In this document: one piece after another, positions 46,334-54,278 of the stretch | Layout of the letters: every line of letters starts with the position of its first letter | Position numbering within the stretch: position 1 is the first letter of the stretch | Source of the DNA: a virus | Length of the DNA: 64,000 bases | Direction: 5' to 3' (one strand) | IMG/VR virus record: IMGVR_UViG_3300032311_001250 | Coordinates: 1-64,000 of that record | Translations under genes and position numbers: made by a program | Notes under the pieces: generated by a model | What the model was told of the DNA's origin: nothing | The model's input: the letters and a program-made list of their open reading frames with translations, nothing else | Databases searched by the model: none

Positions 46334-47209
46334 CTACCTCCTTGCGCTTAACGCGCGCTTCACTCCTGTCTCAAGATCAATCTTCGGCGTGTACACCTGC
46401 AGCATAGCAGAGATGTCCGCGACTCTCCAGTTGACGCCTTCGGGCTTATCAGTTAAAAATTGAAACTTAGGAAAATACCCCTCGGCCTTGGCAACCATCT
46501 CCCCAAGTTGCTGAAAGCTTGTGGCATGACCTGTGCCAATGTTGAGCGGCCCACGATAATCCTGCTTCACCGCCGCATCAACACAACCAACGACGTCACT
46601 GATGTGCACGAAGTCGCGGGTTTGCGTGCCGTCACCCCAGATCACGAACGGATTTTCGCGGTTTCGTCCTCGCTCGATGAACGATGGGAACGGATAGTCC
46701 AGCGCCTGATCCTCGCCGTACCCAGAGAATGGGCGGAAGATATGCGTCCGAACACCCTCGGCTTCGGCAAACTTGGCCAGATACTCACCGGTGAGCTTAG
46801 ACCAGCCATAGGTGAGGTCTGGGTTGCGGATGTCGTCCAGGTTGATGTCGGCTTCGGTAAGCTTCTTGTGCGACTGCTTAGTTTGCAGGTGCACTGGGTA
46901 GGCCGCCGATGAGGAGAAATACACCACACGGGGCTGCTTGGTCCTAATCGCCCACTGCCACATTTCTGCGTCAATAGACAAGTCTACGGCGACGGAGAGC
47001 GGGTTGCCTTCGATCTTTGCTCGACCACCCACCACAGCGGCGAGATGAATCACCAGGTCAAACTGGGTGTGATTGGCCATCTGGAAGAACTTGCGAACAT
47101 CCATACTATCGACGATATCTACGCCAAGAATCTGATGCCCCTGCTGTTCATAGAACTTATGAAAGTGCCGCCCCACAAACCCCTTGTGGCCGGTGATCAA
47201 GATGTTCAC
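46334..47209 (-). CDS. NAD-dependent nucleotide-sugar epimerase/dehydratase
   Basis: TGHKGFVG, HLAAVVGG, SSSAAY, YGWSK, WGDGTQTRDFVHI. Confidence 0.92.
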   Translation of the reverse strand: MNILITGHKGFVGRHFHKFYEQQGHQILGVDIVDSMDVRKFFQMANHTQFDLVIHLAAVVGGRAKIEGNPLSVAVDLSIDAEMWQWAIRTKQPRVVYFSSSAAYPVHLQTKQSHKKLTEADINLDDIRNPDLTYGWSKLTGEYLAKFAEAEGVRTHIFRPFSGYGEDQALDYPFPSFIERGRNRENPFVIWGDGTQTRDFVHISDVVGCVDAAVKQDYRGPLNIGTGHATSFQQLGEMVAKAEGYFPKFQFLTDKPEGVNWRVADISAMLQVYTPKIDLETGVKRALSARR

Positions 47210-47952
47210 TAGTACTCCTCCAACAAATCAAGGTCGTATTCAAAACGACCGCTTCCACCATTCAGCACCGAAAGGCCTTCGTCTGTTGGGTACCGAAAGA
47301 AATCATTTTCGTCCAGCGCCGCTCCGACATGATTGGCAGGGTTCCTGAGTTTTGTCGGAAACCGCTTTCTAACGCTTGGACGTTTCAGTTCGGTTTCAAA
47401 GTAGCTATCATGCATCATGCAGCTTCGCAGAATCTTTTCCGCCAATTTGTCTTGAACAAACAGTTCGTCTGCACCGTATGCTGGTTGCTCTCCGCGCTCC
47501 TGAATAAACATGCCCATCAGCGTCGACATGTTGCGCACCTTATCTGCCCATCCGCTCCACATGCCGGCAGGAACGAGCTGCTTGTGATTTGGGTGATCTT
47601 TCATAACGTGAAAGTCAAGCTCGCTCTCCATCCACTCATCATGCGCCTGGCGCTCCCGCACGGTCAGTCGAGCATCTACATCCCGGACCAGCACGATATC
47701 GACCTCTGGGTCGGCGAAAGCCAGAAAACGCCAGGCCGAAGAGAACCACCGGTTGTTTTGCGGGGACTTCTTAATCTCTACGTTTTGGTGCAGCTCAAGC
47801 GTATCGACAAGCCACTGCGGCACGTCCTCGGAAACGTAGAATCGCACGGTGTACTCAGGGTAGATCTTCTCGGCCAGAGCGACATTCTTGAGCGCTCCGA
47901 CCAGGTACTTCTGGTCTGATCCATACAGGCTGTACGAGATGACTTGTTTCAT
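47209..47952 (-). CDS. Putative glycosyltransferase-like protein
   Basis: VISYSLYG...WRF...RDVDARL (DxD)...MKDHPNH...AGMW; located in a sugar gene cluster. Confidence 0.6.
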   Translation of the reverse strand: MKQVISYSLYGSDQKYLVGALKNVALAEKIYPEYTVRFYVSEDVPQWLVDTLELHQNVEIKKSPQNNRWFSSAWRFLAFADPEVDIVLVRDVDARLTVRERQAHDEWMESELDFHVMKDHPNHKQLVPAGMWSGWADKVRNMSTLMGMFIQERGEQPAYGADELFVQDKLAEKILRSCMMHDSYFETELKRPSVRKRFPTKLRNPANHVGAALDENDFFRYPTDEGLSVLNGGSGRFEYDLDLLEEY

Positions 47953-48620
47953 CCTTCGAGGTCGACGTTCTGAATCTTTCCGAGATCTGAGAAGAGCCTC
48001 TCCGTCAGATATTTGTGGTAGGCCTCGGAATCCTTCATGAAAACCTCTGGCGCATTCACCTCGATGTAGCCGGCGTCGCGCTCCGCCTTGCCGTTGATGA
48101 AGTGCATATGCTCAATGATGCAGTCGGCATCATAAAAGGCGTTGCCGAGCCCTTTGCCAATCGTCAGCCAGAAATTGTCCATGTACATGTGTACAAGCTC
48201 GGGCGGAGCCATATAGCCGATTGCGCGGACAATTGACGACGAGAGCAGCACCGCAGTTGGGAGGCGCTCGCCCTGCAAAAGATCGTTCCCCCAGGCCACG
48301 CCTGGGTTTGAACCAATGCCAAGCATCAACCTGGTATCCCACCCCTTGGTGCGCGGCCGGTGATCATCGCCCATAAACGAAAGGAACTCGTACTTGTCGG
48401 CATATTGATTTGCGATCAGGTTGAGCGTGCCGCACATGCGCAGACGTGGGTTGACTACCGACTTTGCTCGCACTTCAGCGGAATAGTCGCTGGTATCGTC
48501 ATCGTCCAGCCCAAAGATAATGTCGGAGTCTTCTGCTGTGCTGTTGAACTCATGCAAAAGCTCCAGGGCCTTTTCCGGCCGGTTTCTCGTAGGAACGATA
48601 AGCAGATTCTTTTTAGTCAT
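47949..48620 (-). CDS. GT2-like glycosyltransferase
   Basis: IVPTRNRP, FMGDD, HMYMD...IEHMH. Confidence 0.8.
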   Translation of the reverse strand: MTKKNLLIVPTRNRPEKALELLHEFNSTAEDSDIIFGLDDDDTSDYSAEVRAKSVVNPRLRMCGTLNLIANQYADKYEFLSFMGDDHRPRTKGWDTRLMLGIGSNPGVAWGNDLLQGERLPTAVLLSSSIVRAIGYMAPPELVHMYMDNFWLTIGKGLGNAFYDADCIIEHMHFINGKAERDAGYIEVNAPEVFMKDSEAYHKYLTERLFSDLGKIQNVDLEG

Positions 48621-48834
48621 GCTGAACCTTCACTTTCTGGTCAATCAACCATTGCGCTTCTCGCTCATCCAGGCGAACAAACTCGCCGGTGTCGTAGGTC
48701 TTGGGGAACTGCACCGCATACGGCTCAACGTCGCCTGGCCACCGTGGGGCATAGACAAGAGACACGGCAAAGGAGGATGACCATAGGTACCAAATTGCCG
48801 CAGCTCGAGGGCTAGGCGGTACGTTCATTTCCAT
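48613..48834 (-). CDS. Hypothetical protein (leaderless)
   Basis: TGGTATAGT extended -10 box 7 nt upstream of the ATG. Confidence 0.55.
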   Translation of the reverse strand: MEMNVPPSPRAAAIWYLWSSSFAVSLVYAPRWPGDVEPYAVQFPKTYDTGEFVRLDEREAQWLIDQKVKVQHD

Positions 48835-48938
48835 GGGTAGGACTATACCACACAGTTTGTAGATTTGTGTGAGATTGACCTTGCCGGTAACAATCTAATA
48901 CTTTAGTCATGCGTCACCTTCCGAACGTGGCGCGGCGC

Positions 48939-49052
48939 GCTGTGGCGTTACACCGCAGCTGAGGCGGGGGGTTAAGACCCGTCGGAGGGTTACGCCGGGT
49001 GGCCAAGGCACGTCGACGGACGAGCTGCCGGGCCAGCGGTGGCCCCCCGCCA
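48939..49052 (+). ncRNA. Candidate structured RNA or 5' leader (three-way junction)
   Basis: 11-bp closing stem GGCGGGGGGTT/GGCCCCCCGCC with two internal arms; downstream of TTGACC-N18-TACTTT. Confidence 0.45.
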
Positions 49053-49066
49053 ACATTGGAGGGAAC

Positions 49067-49258
49067 ATGGCACCTAAAGGAAAAACTGCGGTTAGCAAGG
49101 AGAAAAAGGCTCCGGTTATGACTGCGCGAAAGTGCACTGCATGCGGCCAAACGATGCGTTCTGATCAAATTTCTACTGTGCTGACGGTTTCCATTGCCGA
49201 CAGTGGCGCGGCAGCAAAGCGATTTTCTCACCGCCACAAGACTTGCCCGGTGAAATGA
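49067..49258 (+). CDS. Small basic Zn-finger-like protein
   Basis: GGAGG RBS; CTAC...HKTC. Confidence 0.6.
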   Translation: MAPKGKTAVSKEKKAPVMTARKCTACGQTMRSDQISTVLTVSIADSGAAAKRFSHRHKTCPVK

Positions 49259-49414
49259 TGGGCGATTATCCTCTGGAGTTTTTGGACTGGGAACAGCCAC
49301 AAGGCTGTACAGAGGAGTGTTCGTTTAGCCTTGTCGAAACTGTATGCACCAGTTGCTCTACCTTGTTCATGATCTGTGAAATCCATGAATCTAGCGTAGA
49401 GGAGTGCTCGGACT

Positions 49415-49861
49415 GTGCCTAATGTCAAACATCAAAGGAACCAGGAAATCGGCGAGCTGTTTCTCGATGGCTACACGGCAAACGAAATCGGCCGGATGTT
49501 CGGTATCAGCAAGCAGCGCGTCTCGTTCATCCTGCACAACCTGGGTATCCGGGCTGAAGAGGAGTTCACAACTGTCATCCTTCCTGAGCCATACGTGGTT
49601 GTCCTTGACTTTGGCGACCCGGCGTCTCACACGCTCCAGGGCCTGATTGAGCTGGGCTTTATTCCAAAGCCTGACGAAGTAGTTGCGTGCACAAAAGAAA
49701 CTGCGCACAACACCCTGAGGTCATTTTCAAAGCTTGAACACGTTCTGGCGTACGTGCCGGTTGTTGAGGACGAAAATCTCCCCGGACGAGAGATCAGGTC
49801 AAACTGGCTGGTATATGCCTACCCGCTAAAAGAGGCTAGGCTTTCTTCTTTGCAGATTTAG
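49415..49861 (+). CDS. HTH DNA-binding protein
   Basis: GYTANEIGRMFGISKQRVSFIL helix-turn-helix. Confidence 0.7.
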   Translation: MPNVKHQRNQEIGELFLDGYTANEIGRMFGISKQRVSFILHNLGIRAEEEFTTVILPEPYVVVLDFGDPASHTLQGLIELGFIPKPDEVVACTKETAHNTLRSFSKLEHVLAYVPVVEDENLPGREIRSNWLVYAYPLKEARLSSLQI

Positions 49862-50600
49862 ACGCCTTGTTGGCGACACTGGCATTGAAGACGAAATTTA
49901 CAAATCCGGTGTGCAGGGTTGCTGCGTCAACTTTCATGCGCAGTGGAACGCCACATGCTCGTGCCAGCTGGCAGAACGATACATCTTCACCGGAGTATCC
50001 GTTTTCCTGGTCGTCCCACTCGTACTTAAAGAACTCGGTGACCTTCCTGCCGGCTGTGCAGTAGTACTTTCGCACATCGGTCTTGTTAATGGTGTCAAGT
50101 GCCCCACGGGATACCAGCATCATGCCGGTGCCAATCCAGTCAACCTTCACCAGGCCGTTGTCATCCGGTCGGACAATATCGCTTGTGATTGAAAAGTTTG
50201 CATCTCCAAGAAGCGCCACGATAGATTCTGCCGGAGCGTCTGGATAGTCGCGCATGAACTGAACGGCACGATCCCACTTCGGAAACTTTTTTGAGCAGGG
50301 GAAGCCAATAATTCCGTCGCCAAGCTGTGGAAGTGCGTTCACTACATCCTCTGGTCGGAACGAGATGTCAGAGTCAACCAGCAAAGCCACATCGGCATCA
50401 CTTTTGAGGAAGTCGTCCATAAGCTGGTTCCTGGCGTTAAACAAGATTGAGTTGCCGGTCATAAAAGTGCTTCGAAGATGGACGCGCTGCATGTACAACG
50501 CATTCTTGAGCGCCATTAGTGACTGAACAAACTCAACGCTGACCTTTCCGTCAAGCGAAGGTGTCAGCAGCATAACTGCCGGATGTTTGACGCCCGACAT
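49836..50600 (-). CDS. GT-A fold glycosyltransferase-like protein
   Basis: TP...GNS...ARN...VDSDI...GTGMM...GEDVSFC. Confidence 0.75.
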   Translation of the reverse strand: MSGVKHPAVMLLTPSLDGKVSVEFVQSLMALKNALYMQRVHLRSTFMTGNSILFNARNQLMDDFLKSDADVALLVDSDISFRPEDVVNALPQLGDGIIGFPCSKKFPKWDRAVQFMRDYPDAPAESIVALLGDANFSITSDIVRPDDNGLVKVDWIGTGMMLVSRGALDTINKTDVRKYYCTAGRKVTEFFKYEWDDQENGYSGEDVSFCQLARACGVPLRMKVDAATLHTGFVNFVFNASVANKASKSAKKKA

Positions 50601-50806
50601 TAGTTGACCTTCTTTCCAAAGATCGGTGCCTTTTCTACGTCAATCTTTTCCTGCTCTTGCTTTAGGACTGACAGCAGTTGCGCAAAGTCATTCATGCCAT
50701 TCTGCCAACCCTCGTGCTTGGCATCCGAAATTTTTCCGGACATCAATGATCCGCCAACTCCAACGCCAAGAAGCAACCCAATTGCAAACGCGATGATGAT
50801 TTCCAT
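50600..50806 (-). CDS. Small membrane protein
   Basis: N-terminal TM helix; GGAGGAG RBS. Confidence 0.6.
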   Translation of the reverse strand: MEIIIAFAIGLLLGVGVGGSLMSGKISDAKHEGWQNGMNDFAQLLSVLKQEQEKIDVEKAPIFGKKVN

Positions 50807-51621
50807 TACTCCTCCGATGCAAGCGCTTTGAGCGCAGCAAGATCATACCGCAAGTTCACTTGCCCTGCGTGTGTTGAGCGACCATCGACCTTGACGTGGA
50901 TCTTTCCGCCCATAGCGCGGATGTCGTCGCAGAACGTGTAGTCCTCTCCGATGAAATGATTGTCCCGACGGCCGTATCGGAAATACTCAACGGTTCGATG
51001 CGTCACGCCGCGAACATCCTCCATGTACCAGCGGTCCGGATAGGCCTTCTGATATTTCTCGAATGTTCGCCGAGCAATAATCATGGCGCCGGTTCCAGCG
51101 TGCGTTGCCTCCATGATACCGAACTCCTCGTCTTCTTTGCTGGGGGCCGGAGCATTTTTGTCCAGAATAAAGTTTGGCATGCCAATGACCGACTCGATTG
51201 CATGCGCCGGAACCTCCGGGTGTTTGCGCATCATCCCGACGCTTCGATCCCAGTCGATAGCTCGCTTCAAGCATGGAATGGCAACCACATCCTTGTTGGC
51301 AACCAGGGCCACCATTACGTCCTCCCAACGCACCGAAATATCAGCGTCCAGAAACAGCATGTGCGTCGCCTTAGTGCTGGTCATGAACTGGGCTACGCAG
51401 CGGTTCCTGGCCGCCACTAACATTGAGTTTCCCACCACAAACGACCAGGAAAACGGGATGCCAACCGACAGGCAGGCCTGCTGAATCCCCAAAAGTGAGT
51501 GCACGTATCCATGATTTACGTTGCCGTCAATGATGGGCGTGATCGCAAAAAGGGAGATCGGCGACTCTTGGGGGGCAAGCTTCACCTGGGGTTGCTGCTG
51601 ACGGAACTTCTTCTTGGCCAT
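50806..51621 (-). CDS. GT-A fold glycosyltransferase-like protein (paralog of 49836..50600)
   Basis: TP...GNS...ARN...LDADI...GTGAM...GEDYTFC; TTGGCA-N17-TATGAT-N6-ATG leaderless start. Confidence 0.75.
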   Translation of the reverse strand: MAKKKFRQQQPQVKLAPQESPISLFAITPIIDGNVNHGYVHSLLGIQQACLSVGIPFSWSFVVGNSMLVAARNRCVAQFMTSTKATHMLFLDADISVRWEDVMVALVANKDVVAIPCLKRAIDWDRSVGMMRKHPEVPAHAIESVIGMPNFILDKNAPAPSKEDEEFGIMEATHAGTGAMIIARRTFEKYQKAYPDRWYMEDVRGVTHRTVEYFRYGRRDNHFIGEDYTFCDDIRAMGGKIHVKVDGRSTHAGQVNLRYDLAALKALASEE

Positions 51622-51665
51622 GCCGGGATCATACACGAAAATTTTCGGCGTGCCAACCCGATTTT

Positions 51666-51926
51666 GGGGGAAGGGGGGGAGAACCTTTAAGGAGAGGGGG
51701 GGATGGGGGGAATCAGGGCTCCGGGCGGCGAGGGTTCCGGGGTATGAGTATGTTGTTAATACTTCTGTTTAGAAAATTGGGGCGATTTCGTGCTTAAAAT
51801 TGGGGCGCTGCGCAGAAACACAAAGCAGTTGGCACTCCAGATTTTGGTGTGCTAGGATGCGCAGTCCAGACCTGGGGGGGGATGGATGGGGATGACGGGC
51901 GACGGGGGCAGGGTATACGGGGTAGG
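51666..51926 (+). other. G-run-rich intergenic region (G-quadruplex potential)
   Basis: Two clusters of four or more G3-G8 runs at about 51666-51742 and 51874-51926. Confidence 0.4.
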
Positions 51927-51932
51927 AGTTTG

Positions 51933-52289
51933 ATGGACTCAAAAGAGCTGAAACTGGTGAGCCAAAAGGCCGAGTGTCTCCACTCATCGGCACTCATCCA
52001 AACACCAGACGGGTTGAAGTCGTATGGTCTTCCGGTTGACACCGATGATTGCATGCAATGCGCATGGCGAGATTTTGAGCAGTCGGTCGGCAAGCGGGTT
52101 GAGCTCCCTTCGATGCAGATCTTCTGGTGGAATTACAGCGACGACAAGGAACCACATTGGGTTGCCGAAATCATGCCGCTCGACTTGCTCCCGGATGTTG
52201 CGTCAATTGTTGGACGCGGGGAAACGCCCGGTAAAGCCATCCGAGATATGTCTCGTCAGCTCAGGACTTTTTTGAGTCAGCACCAATAA
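51933..52289 (+). CDS. HicB-like domain protein
   Basis: GTAGGAG RBS; C-terminal WVAEIMPLDLLPDVASIVGRGETPGKAIRDMSRQL resembles the HicB antitoxin N-domain pattern (LP...GET..EA). Confidence 0.55.
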   Translation: MDSKELKLVSQKAECLHSSALIQTPDGLKSYGLPVDTDDCMQCAWRDFEQSVGKRVELPSMQIFWWNYSDDKEPHWVAEIMPLDLLPDVASIVGRGETPGKAIRDMSRQLRTFLSQHQ

Positions 52290-52482
52290 CGACGTGCGTC
52301 TCCTGAGGAATCTTCTCCTGGAATGCCCAGCCTGATCCTTTGTAGGTAATCTTTGGTGCGTTGAAGACAACGCGCATCTCGCCGTTGCATACCAGGCACA
52401 ACTCCTTCGAGTCGTCGCTCATCTTGCGAACGGTCTCACGAACGATGTCGCATTTTTCACACTTGTAGTCGTACGTTGGCAT
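52261..52482 (-). CDS. FmdB-like zinc-ribbon protein
   Basis: MPTYDYKCEKC...CLVC...MRVV...ITYKGSGW. Confidence 0.88.
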   Translation of the reverse strand: MPTYDYKCEKCDIVRETVRKMSDDSKELCLVCNGEMRVVFNAPKITYKGSGWAFQEKIPQETHVVIGADSKKS

Positions 52483-52492
52483 GATTCTCCTT

Positions 52493-52564
52493 TGGTGGAG
52501 CCGGGCGGGAGTTTCACCCGCCGTTACCCTTGGGCATGATGACCCTTGGCGTGTACGCGGCCCC
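52493..52564 (-). ncRNA. 72-nt tRNA-like RNA with an Ala-type acceptor stem and ACCA end
   Basis: GGGGCCG/CGGCTCC-ACCA (G3.U70, A73); T-arm GGCGGG-TGAAACT-CCCGCC; no canonical D or anticodon arm; TGATATAGT 5 nt upstream. Confidence 0.7.
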
Positions 52565-52580
52565 GGCAGACTATATCAGA

Positions 52581-52940
52581 TTATAGGCCGAGAGTTACCT
52601 CTCCGGGTACTGCGTTATCCCTTCGCGCCTGGTCTTCCTGGACCTTCCATCGCTTGGCAATCTTTCGAACCGCCCACGACGAGCGGAGAAGGCTCCTAGC
52701 GCGTTCTCGCTGCATGTTGGCCCACGATTCCAGCTCTTCTGAGCTTGTGGCGATATACACGCCGGCAGGGCTGTCAGAGGCAGAGCAGATCGGCTGCTCC
52801 CAGACGTTTCGGAGCTCTTCGACGGCAAGCTGAATTGCCCTGCTATTCCATCGGGTAGTCTTGGCCAGCTCTTTGTAGGTAATAGCGTTTTCTCGACCAA
52901 CACGAATCTGCGAAAGTAAATAAATTAACTCTGGACCCAT
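52581..52940 (-). CDS. Winged-HTH protein
   Basis: GRENAITYKELA...RAIQLAVEELR...PICS...GVYIA. Confidence 0.7.
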   Translation of the reverse strand: MGPELIYLLSQIRVGRENAITYKELAKTTRWNSRAIQLAVEELRNVWEQPICSASDSPAGVYIATSSEELESWANMQRERARSLLRSSWAVRKIAKRWKVQEDQARRDNAVPGEVTLGL

Positions 52941-52948
52941 AATTCCTC

Positions 52949-53710
52949 CTACGGCAAAAACCGCACTTCAATAGTATTCTTCCAGCCCTTAACATTCTGA
53001 CCATTACGGCCGTTTTTATAGGCCCCCAGGGCTGCCCATACCTGTGGTGACAAGTCTACCAGAGACCAGGCAGAGGCCGGTCCATCCGGGTGGCGCTGAC
53101 GGCAGTCGCAGTAGTCAACGACCCACACCTCAACCGATTTATGAGTGACGAGTGAGGTGATTAGCAACTTGTGGGTTGGGATTTGATGCCAAAGAGGCAT
53201 CTGTTCGGCAATCCTCTTGCGAAGGGCCGGGCCAATGGCGGCGTACATGTTGTCAACGTACTCAAGGCCATTCCACGGCCGGACCAGCTTGCTCCAACTG
53301 CCCATGTCGCGGTAGTAGCAGCCCCACTCGGGATGACTCTTGCACTTACTCTTGCTGAGGTACTTGTTTTCCGGGTCAACTGATACCCACGTCTTCGGGT
53401 GGTCATACCACGACTTGGCGTGGTTATAAGCGTCGTAGGTTGTGCCAAAGCCAATCATTTTGTGAGCAGGGGCCCAATAGGCGCGGTCAAACGTCACGTC
53501 AACATTGGGGGTTTTTGGGTAATCATAGGACTGGATACCCGGAGCAGTAGCCGTCTCTACGCAAGGCGCGGGGGCGACGAGGAGTGCTCCCGCTACGGCC
53601 AGCGCAACGAGCACTGTCCACAATCGTCGGTGAGCTCTGCGTGCCGGTAGCTTCATGCGAGCCTCCTCCGGGTACGGTAGCAGCGCGCTAGACACGTGTC
53701 CACTAGACAT
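52949..53710 (-). CDS. Exported RlpA-like double-psi beta-barrel protein (lytic transglycosylase/expansin-like)
   Basis: Signal-like hydrophobic segment; GFGTTY, YAAI, SVEVWVVDYC, LVDLSPQVWAALG. Confidence 0.7.
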   Translation of the reverse strand: MSSGHVSSALLPYPEEARMKLPARRAHRRLWTVLVALAVAGALLVAPAPCVETATAPGIQSYDYPKTPNVDVTFDRAYWAPAHKMIGFGTTYDAYNHAKSWYDHPKTWVSVDPENKYLSKSKCKSHPEWGCYYRDMGSWSKLVRPWNGLEYVDNMYAAIGPALRKRIAEQMPLWHQIPTHKLLITSLVTHKSVEVWVVDYCDCRQRHPDGPASAWSLVDLSPQVWAALGAYKNGRNGQNVKGWKNTIEVRFLP

Positions 53711-53819
53711 TTAACTACCTCCTCGCCAGCATTGCCGGCGCTTGTTTCCAAGACGAGTATACGCTATCCTCACTAGTGAGGCCATTGCCTACCACGAGCA
53801 TATCATATCAGGGGGAACC

Positions 53820-54278
53820 ATGCCAGAAATCAGCACAGAAAATATCGACGATCTGATCCTTCACCCGGATAATCCTCGTGAGGGGGATATTGGTGCGATT
53901 GTTACAAGCATCAAGAAGAACGGGTGGTTTGGCACGGTCGTAGCTCAGAAATCAACCGGCTATATTCTTGCAGGGAACCATCGCGTGCAGGCCGCTCGAA
54001 TCTGCGGCATCAAAGAGGTCCCGGTATTCTGGGTGGACTGCGACGATGAGCGTGCAAAGGCAATCCTTCTTGCGGATAACAAGACAGCGGAGCTGGCAAG
54101 CTGGAACGATGATACCTTGCTTGCGCTACTTCAGGAGGCAGATGCCGGGAACTACCTTCTCGACACAGCATTCGATCAGGACGATATTCAGAAGCTTCTA
54201 GCCAAGCTTAATAGCGCAGATGGCGACGACGGGGACGTGTGCCCAACATGCGGCTCGAAGCGAAAGAAGGGCCGATGA
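53820..54278 (+). CDS. ParB/Srx-like domain protein
   Basis: LILHPDNPR...SIKKNGW...ILAGNHRVQAA...LADNKTAELASW. Confidence 0.88.
   Translation: MPEISTENIDDLILHPDNPREGDIGAIVTSIKKNGWFGTVVAQKSTGYILAGNHRVQAARICGIKEVPVFWVDCDDERAKAILLADNKTAELASWNDDTLLALLQEADAGNYLLDTAFDQDDIQKLLAKLNSADGDDGDVCPTCGSKRKKGR

Follow-up and report, generated by a model that had tools for sequence, protein, structure and literature searches.

A tag-less, alanine-type tRNA-like RNA gene in an uncultured freshwater phage

The tRNA-like domain (TLD) of transfer-messenger RNA (tmRNA, SsrA) combines a G3.U70 pair, the discriminator A73, a CCA end and a T arm with a stemless, reduced D loop, and has no anticodon (PMC3968760). G3.U70 and A73 are the keys recognized by alanyl-tRNA synthetase (AlaRS), and all ssrA sequences conserve both; binding of SmpB is reported to require interactions between the D loop and the T loop (PMC3968760). 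The TLD also occurs on its own: Hudson, Lau and Williams list a “Mycobacterium phage DS6A (TLD only)” (PMC4131195), and the 2025 tmRNA database paper describes genes of ~65 bp that lack a coding sequence (CDS) in some plastids (PMC11915505). As related in the parts of these two papers that cite Mao et al. 2009 (PMC4131195, PMC11915505), tmRNA in E. coli is strongly inhibited by a TLD-only-like molecule, whether or not this can be charged, and titration of SmpB may be the cause. Minihelices that combine an acceptor stem with a T arm have been described as AlaRS substrates (PMC11392972). Here we analyzed a stretch of 64,000 nt, hereafter the window, which covers positions 1 to 64,000 of the IMG/VR virus record IMGVR_UViG_3300032311_001250 (78,442 bp, ~90% complete), and we describe in it a 72-nt tag-less, alanine-type tRNA-like RNA gene (52493..52564, minus strand). 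From comparison with its relatives, this RNA is best read as a reduced, divergent offshoot of the tag-less (TLD-only) tmRNA-like RNAs of phages.

The gene runs from G1 at 52564 to A72, the last base of an encoded CCA, at 52493, and all its parts lie on the minus strand. The 5′ strand of the acceptor stem, GGGGCCG (52558..52564), holds the G3 of G3.U70 and is followed by an unpaired 8-nt linker, CGUACACG (52550..52557), which stands in place of the D arm as an analogue of the D loop. The single middle hairpin of 22 nt (CC-AA-GGGU / loop CAUCAU / GCCC-AA-GG, 52528..52549) lies where tmRNA has its P2 helix or tRNA its anticodon arm, and a 5-nt junction, GUAAC (52523..52527), separates it from the T arm (52504..52522), which has a 6-bp stem, GGCGGG/CCCGCC, and a 7-nt loop, UGAAACU. 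The 3′ strand of the acceptor stem, CGGCUCC with U70 (52503-52497), A73 and the CCA (52496-52493) complete the molecule, so that a 7-bp acceptor stem and a 6-bp T stem form a stack of 13 bp (7+6). The minimum-free-energy fold gives this structure at -32 kcal/mol, with a modest z-score against shuffles (-1.55). The letters and pairings agree with those quoted in an earlier sequence-only reading of the locus, as do three features that it had singled out: the missing D stem, the missing canonical anticodon arm and the non-canonical T loop, in which the equivalents of U54 and A58 are present while U55 and C56 are absent. An internal direct repeat, CCAAGGGT, was also pointed out there; it does occur in the window, but it is not conserved in the relatives, and since only the window has it we dropped it as a functional feature.

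Shape alone says little about such an element. When the descriptor is loose (a 7-bp stem, a 5/6-bp hairpin stacked on it, and NCCA), a shuffled window has ~1.2 matches; when it is strict (G3.U70, A73, CCA, full pairing), 0.05, a rate too high to persuade in a large scan, and the motif by itself is weak evidence. We judged the feature real because of its conservation and covariation, not its shape. In 14 related viral contigs of IMG/VR the same two genes flank the RNA, which keeps its place there and is 85-94% identical to the window copy; in the flanking genes the identity is 41-70% at third codon positions and 86-100% at first and second positions. Across the RNA, none of the six reading frames is free of stops in all relatives, and codon periodicity is absent from the variable columns. 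This comparison shows an RNA that, as judged from its pattern of substitution, is non-coding and under purifying selection, and it confirms the locus, at the level of comparative evidence, as a real small-RNA gene carried by an uncultured freshwater phage.

The gene is nearly invisible to standard tools, as had been foreseen. Rfam gives no match to the window RNA at gathering score, a 501-nt slice gives none at E<=10, and ARAGORN makes no call at default settings, in its mitochondrial D-armless mode or in its tmRNA mode; at a 60% threshold it returns an aberrant call with a 6-nt loop. Among 50,697 cultured phage records, blastn found no match to the locus, and with the 72-nt RNA as the query only four insignificant short matches (E 2-7), each covered by a gene annotated as a hypothetical protein in an Arthrobacter phage. 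A specific sequence pattern has 0 matches in 185,579 reference genomes. An acceptor-only pattern returned tRNA-Ala genes and chance matches from the reference genomes, with no tag-less form among the 120 loci listed. Most of 34 metagenome pattern matches, as well as L030-L032, were set aside as chance matches that lack pairing.

The helices are maintained by compensatory change. In a gap-free alignment of nine distinct 72-nt sequences of the window clade, 89% of cells pair, compared with 31-57% in slid controls, and none of 500 shuffles reached the covariation score. Both strands of the acceptor stem, A73, the CCA and the junction are invariant in these sequences, T-stem pairs 45:59 and 46:58 are doubly changed, and the middle-arm pair 20:33 is seen as G-C, A-U and C-G; the loop of the middle arm is constrained as well. 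A wider alignment of 15 sequences was fitted to a model of the window family, a fit that leans towards the structure; in it 97% of cells pair, nine pairs are doubly changed and 0/500 shuffles match any of the measures. The doubly changed pairs include four of the six T-stem pairs, the sixth pair among them (G-C to A-U in L042). The check for covariation among homologs that the sequence-only reading had proposed thus turned up compensatory changes in both alignments.

One further pair lies outside the helices. In the wider alignment, linker column 14 and T-loop column 109 show covariation (GC 6, UA 3, AU 2, mismatched 3), a score that 0/500 shuffles reached, and among 106 variable unpaired column pairs this one alone has three Watson-Crick types. 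It joins the fifth base of the linker (52553 in the window) to the third base of the T loop. Together with the conserved U54 and A58 equivalents, this candidate pair looks like a tRNA-type elbow contact, an analogue of G19-C56.

Diverged members of the family, of 61-113 nt, came from a metagenome scan and further viral scans. L055 (72 nt) adjoins a MazG-like gene and has a fully paired middle arm of 8 bp; L058 and L061 (73 nt) differ in the middle hairpin; L127 and L136 (76 nt) have the same 6-bp T stem as the window RNA. The shortest, L042 (61 nt), comes from an AT-rich contig and has a 3-bp middle module; it joins tmRNA-type UUCGAC...GGAC junctions to a window-type 6-bp T stem and a UGCAACU loop. 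L300:700-796(-) and L301:2950-3046(+), both of 97 nt, have a long middle helix, and L303:10105-10217(-), of 113 nt, has a branched middle domain and lies directly upstream of a tRNA-Tyr gene. The junction reads G(A/U)AAC or GAC in the diverged members, and the middle module varies in size at the place where tmRNA carries its body. The gene downstream differs among members, being a Zn ribbon, a MazG-like gene or tRNA genes, with none nearby in others, and comparison of neighbors found no flanking protein family common to the subfamily; a shared protein partner adjoining the RNA, which we looked for across the class, was likewise not found. As far as these contigs tell, the comparison shows that the RNA core is portable among unrelated gene contexts. 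Two details of the middle domains may be mentioned here: that of L303 holds a second, canonical T-arm-like hairpin (GGGUUCGAUUCCC), and the long helix of L300 and L301 ends in a pyrimidine-rich loop (CCUCUCUCCUC-type), like an anti-Shine-Dalgarno tract.

The alanine identity set is the most constant part of the molecule. Since earlier searches had fixed the acceptor stem, we used a search based on the T arm only, with the acceptor strand left free. Every true match has G1-G4, G3.U70, A73 and CCA, and the sole change in the acceptor stem among the 15 aligned members is at pair 5:68, C-G to G-C in L303. Because this identity set is invariant even when it is not imposed, charging with alanine by AlaRS is the best-supported functional inference for the RNA.

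DS6A is the closest described precedent. Its TLD-only gene (tmRNA Website tmID 11587), which we located at JN698994 28478-28560 (+), has the very acceptor stem of the window RNA, GGGGCCG/CGGCUCC with G3.U70 and A73. Both RNAs are phage-borne, lack a D stem and a tag frame, have a single hairpin at the place of the tmRNA body and escape ARAGORN. They differ in the elbow and the 3′ end: the DS6A RNA has a 5-bp T stem, a UUCGAUU loop, a 14-nt D-loop analogue ending in GGUCGAC, a CAC junction and no encoded CCA, whereas in the window RNA the T stem measures 6 bp and carries a UGAAACU loop, the linker has 8 nt and the CCA is encoded. The architecture of the DS6A type, an acceptor stem, an unpaired linker, one variable hairpin, a T arm, no anticodon and a phage genome, is that of the window RNA, which, in the same state as the DS6A TLD-only form, has no mRNA-like domain, resume codon or tag frame.

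DS6A is not an isolated case. We searched viral contigs with the acceptor stem and ACCA only and found, among the matches listed, which are a lower bound, tRNA-Ala genes together with many genes of 65-82 nt that carry the full hallmarks of the tmRNA TLD and have no room for a tag frame. At least six phage genes of ~80 nt are called as RF00023 tmRNA above the gathering score (47.9-67.1 bits, model positions 1-374 spanned) and have no mRNA or pseudoknot body: L167:154-233(-), L083:2135-2214(-), L080:3255-3333(-), L155:5172-5253(-), L088:187-266(-) and L171:1287-1364(+). Because many of the matches to stem and ACCA carry the TLD hallmarks and these six draw RF00023 calls, we conclude that tag-less tmRNA genes are common in uncultured phages. 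Several of them adjoin tRNA genes or sit in tRNA arrays, and many of the RF00023-called genes have a -10-like box just upstream and an open reading frame (ORF) or a tRNA gene just downstream. Like the window RNA they have an encoded ACCA, a layout of acceptor, unpaired linker, one hairpin and T arm and, as the search required, this acceptor stem. They differ from it in keeping the GGUUUCGAC linker, a GGAC junction, a 5-bp T stem and a UUCGAxx loop, none of which the window RNA has.

Some features of these genes stand apart from the comparison with the window RNA. In the single hairpin of the canonical tag-less forms a purine-rich loop motif of the UAAAGCCGAAGCGCAAC type recurs in L083, L167, L080, L155, L088, L171 and L078 (alignment columns ~26-45) and is conserved across otherwise different phages. 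L087:2975-3119(-) holds two tag-less TLD genes in tandem, one of 65 nt with an encoded CCA and a second of ~80 nt, without CCA, that has the stem GGGACCA/UGGUUCC with G3.U70; ARAGORN fuses the two into a 145-nt “tmRNA” with a spurious 31-aa tag. On contig L167 a match to the type II hammerhead ribozyme (RF02276, 2716-2781(-), 38.3 bits vs a gathering score of 37) lies alongside the tag-less tmRNA gene and a tRNA-Thr gene.

The link of the window RNA to tmRNA relies on the plan without D arm or anticodon, on the acceptor stem identical to that of DS6A, on the variable middle module and on the bridging member L042. Of the features expected of a tmRNA TLD, the alanine-type acceptor with G3.U70, A73 and CCA is present, and so are the T arm and the absence of a D stem and of an anticodon. 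The mRNA-like domain, the pseudoknots and the tag ORF of SsrA are missing from the window RNA, whose stack measures 13 bp vs 12 bp. The CDS-less tmRNAs of jakobid mitochondria and of Mallomonadaceae plastids (~65 bp; PMC11915505) are of similar size, also lack a tag frame and show that a TLD alone can be kept by selection; they differ in being genes of cellular organelles with a cognate imported SmpB, and they are likened to the window RNA by plan only. A canonical tRNA-Ala would have a cloverleaf, and the window RNA has none, nor an RF00005 match in Rfam or a default ARAGORN call; phages and alphaproteobacteria commonly carry tRNA-Ala genes whose GGGGCCG stem is the same, and these genes, like AlaRS minihelices, share with it G3.U70, A73 and CCA on an acceptor/T coaxial stack, but the window RNA lacks a D arm and an alanine-anticodon arm and has a T stem of 6 bp.

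Several results weigh against placing the window RNA within the tmRNA lineage. Rfam returns no RF00023 match, even at E<=10. The linker CGUACACG is stemless as in tmRNA and contains neither GG nor UUCGAC, a motif that within the window subfamily survives only in L042; in place of a 5-bp T stem with a UUCRANY loop there are 6 bp and UGNAACU, with U55 and C56 lost. The 13-bp stack, this T loop and the 8-nt D-loop analogue without GG/UUCGAC set the window RNA apart from every described TLD. At the candidate elbow pair the window copy itself has a C.A mismatch. Model scores point the same way. A model built from seven canonical TLD-only genes (R1) gives DS6A 58.9 bits and L087, L120 and L089 50-52, but the window RNA 25.9 (window family 24.5-29.3); tRNA-Ala controls with the same stem score 37-47 bits, except L116 (31.3), so that by score the window RNA falls below them and outside the DS6A-type class. 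The reciprocal model of the window family (R2) finds L058, L127 and L042 to be clear relatives (38-52 bits), and it gives canonical TLD-only genes 18-30 and tRNA-Ala controls 16-22, which overlap. Because Rfam is silent and the TLD-only model ranks the window RNA below tRNA-Ala controls, descent from tmRNA rather than from tRNA-Ala is not demonstrated by these comparisons. The resemblance to the tmRNA TLD that was originally proposed thus holds for architecture and acceptor stem and fails for membership in the Rfam and TLD-only models, while the core of that proposal, an alanine-type mimic like a TLD without an mRNA part, is upheld by purifying selection, compensatory changes, the invariant AlaRS set and the tag-less tmRNA genes with an identical acceptor stem in phages (DS6A and the RF00023-called loci).

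As a mechanism, we propose that transcription in the window clade would start at or beside G1 from an extended -10 box, TGnTATAGT, and that the 3′ end would be freed at the encoded CCA from a transcript continuing into the downstream Zn-ribbon gene. Host AlaRS would then charge the RNA with alanine, and the charged RNA would act in trans on host SmpB, EF-Tu and the stalled ribosome. Either these partners would be titrated and tmRNA tagging shut off, as reported for TLD-only RNA in E. coli, or ribosomes would be rescued without a degradation tag. We offer the full chain, from transcription through charging to action in trans as a decoy or substitute in trans-translation, as a tentative proposal that is possible but short of probable. 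Three further points weigh against it: no SmpB gene was found in the phage record, EF-Tu or the ribosome may not accommodate a 13-bp stack where tRNA and tmRNA have 12 bp, and the elbow that SmpB recognizes is, from the alignments, remodeled in the window RNA. The earlier suggestion that the RNA is a decoy for anticodon nucleases is unlikely, as the window RNA has no anticodon loop.

If such RNAs block or replace trans-translation, they would be a widespread phage takeover tool against ribosome rescue; a reduced branch that had lost SmpB binding would indicate that alanyl-RNA has been put to a new use. TLD-only tmRNA has so far passed for an oddity of a single mycobacteriophage and some organelles, and the present comparison shows that small top halves of alanine-type tRNA are maintained by selection in phages from many environments, and that one branch of them has rebuilt the elbow and lengthened the T stem with the AlaRS identity set untouched. 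RNAs of this type are a blind spot of ARAGORN, of tRNAscan-type tools and of Rfam, and the window RNA, being short and self-contained, is directly testable under either reading.

The alternative that survives best is an alanine-accepting or AlaRS-binding minihelix RNA unrelated to SmpB and tmRNA, which might serve as a decoy for host defense toxins that attack tRNA acceptor ends or aminoacyl-tRNA, as a sponge for AlaRS or EF-Tu, or as the source of alanine for a non-ribosomal aminoacyl-transferase. The features that the RNA has kept are exactly those that AlaRS needs (PMC3968760), those tied to SmpB binding, the D-loop/T-loop consensus, are remodeled, and its model score is no nearer to TLD-only genes than to tRNA-Ala; the RNA also lies in an operon of early or host-takeover type, beside sugar-modifying genes. 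However, among ten neighbors scanned there is no aminoacyl-transferase of the Fem, MprF or GNAT type, the subfamily has no flanking gene family in common, anticodon nucleases are excluded as targets by the missing anticodon loop, and both the bridge formed by L042 and the DS6A acceptor stem point to tmRNA. We regard this alternative as unlikely, though a credible contender. A further reading would make the 7+6 subfamily (the window clade, L055, L058, L127, L042, L300/L301 and L303) a distinct, undescribed class of phage alanine acceptors that has departed from SmpB and tmRNA. Its hallmarks would be a minimal tRNA top half whose acceptor and T stems stack to 13 bp, a T loop of the G55 type and only one Watson-Crick pair at the elbow, and after charging by AlaRS it would be used for SmpB-independent ribosome rescue or alanine addition, for donation of alanine to a non-ribosomal acceptor, or as a decoy against defenses that cleave or modify the acceptor ends of tRNA. 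Such a class seems to us rather unlikely.

The surroundings of the gene bear on a second alternative, in which the RNA acts in cis. Upstream lies a gene for a 119-aa protein of unknown function (phrog_2113, 52581..52940, minus strand), which served as the synteny anchor for the relatives; 16 nt past its stop codon is an extended -10-like box, TGATATAGT (52570..52578, minus strand), followed by the 5-nt spacer ctgcc and G1. TGnTATAGT is kept in all members of the clade, and the flanking spacer bases vary. The claim that the RNA is promoter-driven is plausible on this ground for the window's own clade only; the -35 region is weak and a consensus promoter scanner called no full sigma-70 promoter at the RNA. 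Downstream, a ribosome-binding site, AAGGAG (52492-52487), directly follows the CCA, as had been noted, and the ATG (52482) of a 73-aa Zn-ribbon gene (FmdB-like, PF09723; 52261..52492 with its ribosome-binding site, minus strand) comes 10 nt after the CCA. A terminator scanner called none anywhere in 51700-53900.

This arrangement, with the CCA running at once into AAGGAG, would suit a tRNA-shaped leader or punctuation mark, that is, an RNase P or RNase E-type processing site or a 5′ protection for the Zn-ribbon mRNA, with no role for the released RNA. An ORF likewise starts 14-23 nt after the CCA in L042, L127, L078 and L089, and the G1 of L055 overlaps the stop codon that precedes it upstream, which means that this copy must be cut from a longer transcript. 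Yet processing needs only the shape of a tRNA, and the AlaRS set and CCA are invariant without having been imposed by the search; the downstream genes are unrelated among members, and the middle arm loop and elbow pair are constrained as well. Because one and the same core stands ahead of unrelated genes or of tRNA genes, with no shared flanking family, a trans-acting alanine acceptor is favored, on this comparative evidence, over a purely cis processing signal, which we consider improbable as a full account.

A non-functional origin, as a decayed fragment of tRNA-Ala or ssrA, an att-site remnant or a chance fold, is very improbable and already largely refuted by the apparent selection and covariation: the 3′ 30 nt, which we take to resemble the 3′ end of ssrA, the modest fold z-score and the occurrence of the strict motif by chance in ~5% of shuffled windows speak for it, but strong purifying selection with compensatory change, the presence of both acceptor strands in mid-operon between conserved genes, the lack of any tyrosine or serine recombinase in the record and the lack of any copy of the specific pattern in the reference genomes speak against it, and the att-site remnant in particular was rejected on the two strands, the mid-operon position and the absence of a Phage_integrase or Resolvase match in the record.

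The record encodes a large terminase, a head protease and a major head gene, very large virion-type ORFs and a ParB-like gene. Downstream of the RNA lies a sugar-modification cluster (46334-51636 of the window, minus strand) with a nucleotide-sugar epimerase-like gene, a glycosyltransferase, an unassigned 247-aa ORF (47209-47952) and two paralogous phrog_1574 proteins. In L055 a 301-aa ORF, glycosyltransferase-like by eye only, comes just after the RNA copy and the MazG-like gene. In public sequencing data the locus occurs in DNA metagenomes from freshwater or lakes, with no RNA dataset listed among them. On the plus strand, ORFs of 3534, 1706, 538 and 1185 aa follow the head genes (window 10956-31866); of the two scanned among these four, that of 1185 aa has a weak tail-protein match and that of 538 aa none. 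The size of the 3534-aa ORF had hinted at a virion RNA polymerase and an N4-like phage, for which PHROGs gave no support. Past the window, the record, in which no integrase was found, ends within a tRNA-Asn(GTT) gene (G000 78371-78445, minus strand) that runs off its end and may be a phage tRNA or may reflect a contig ending at a host tRNA.

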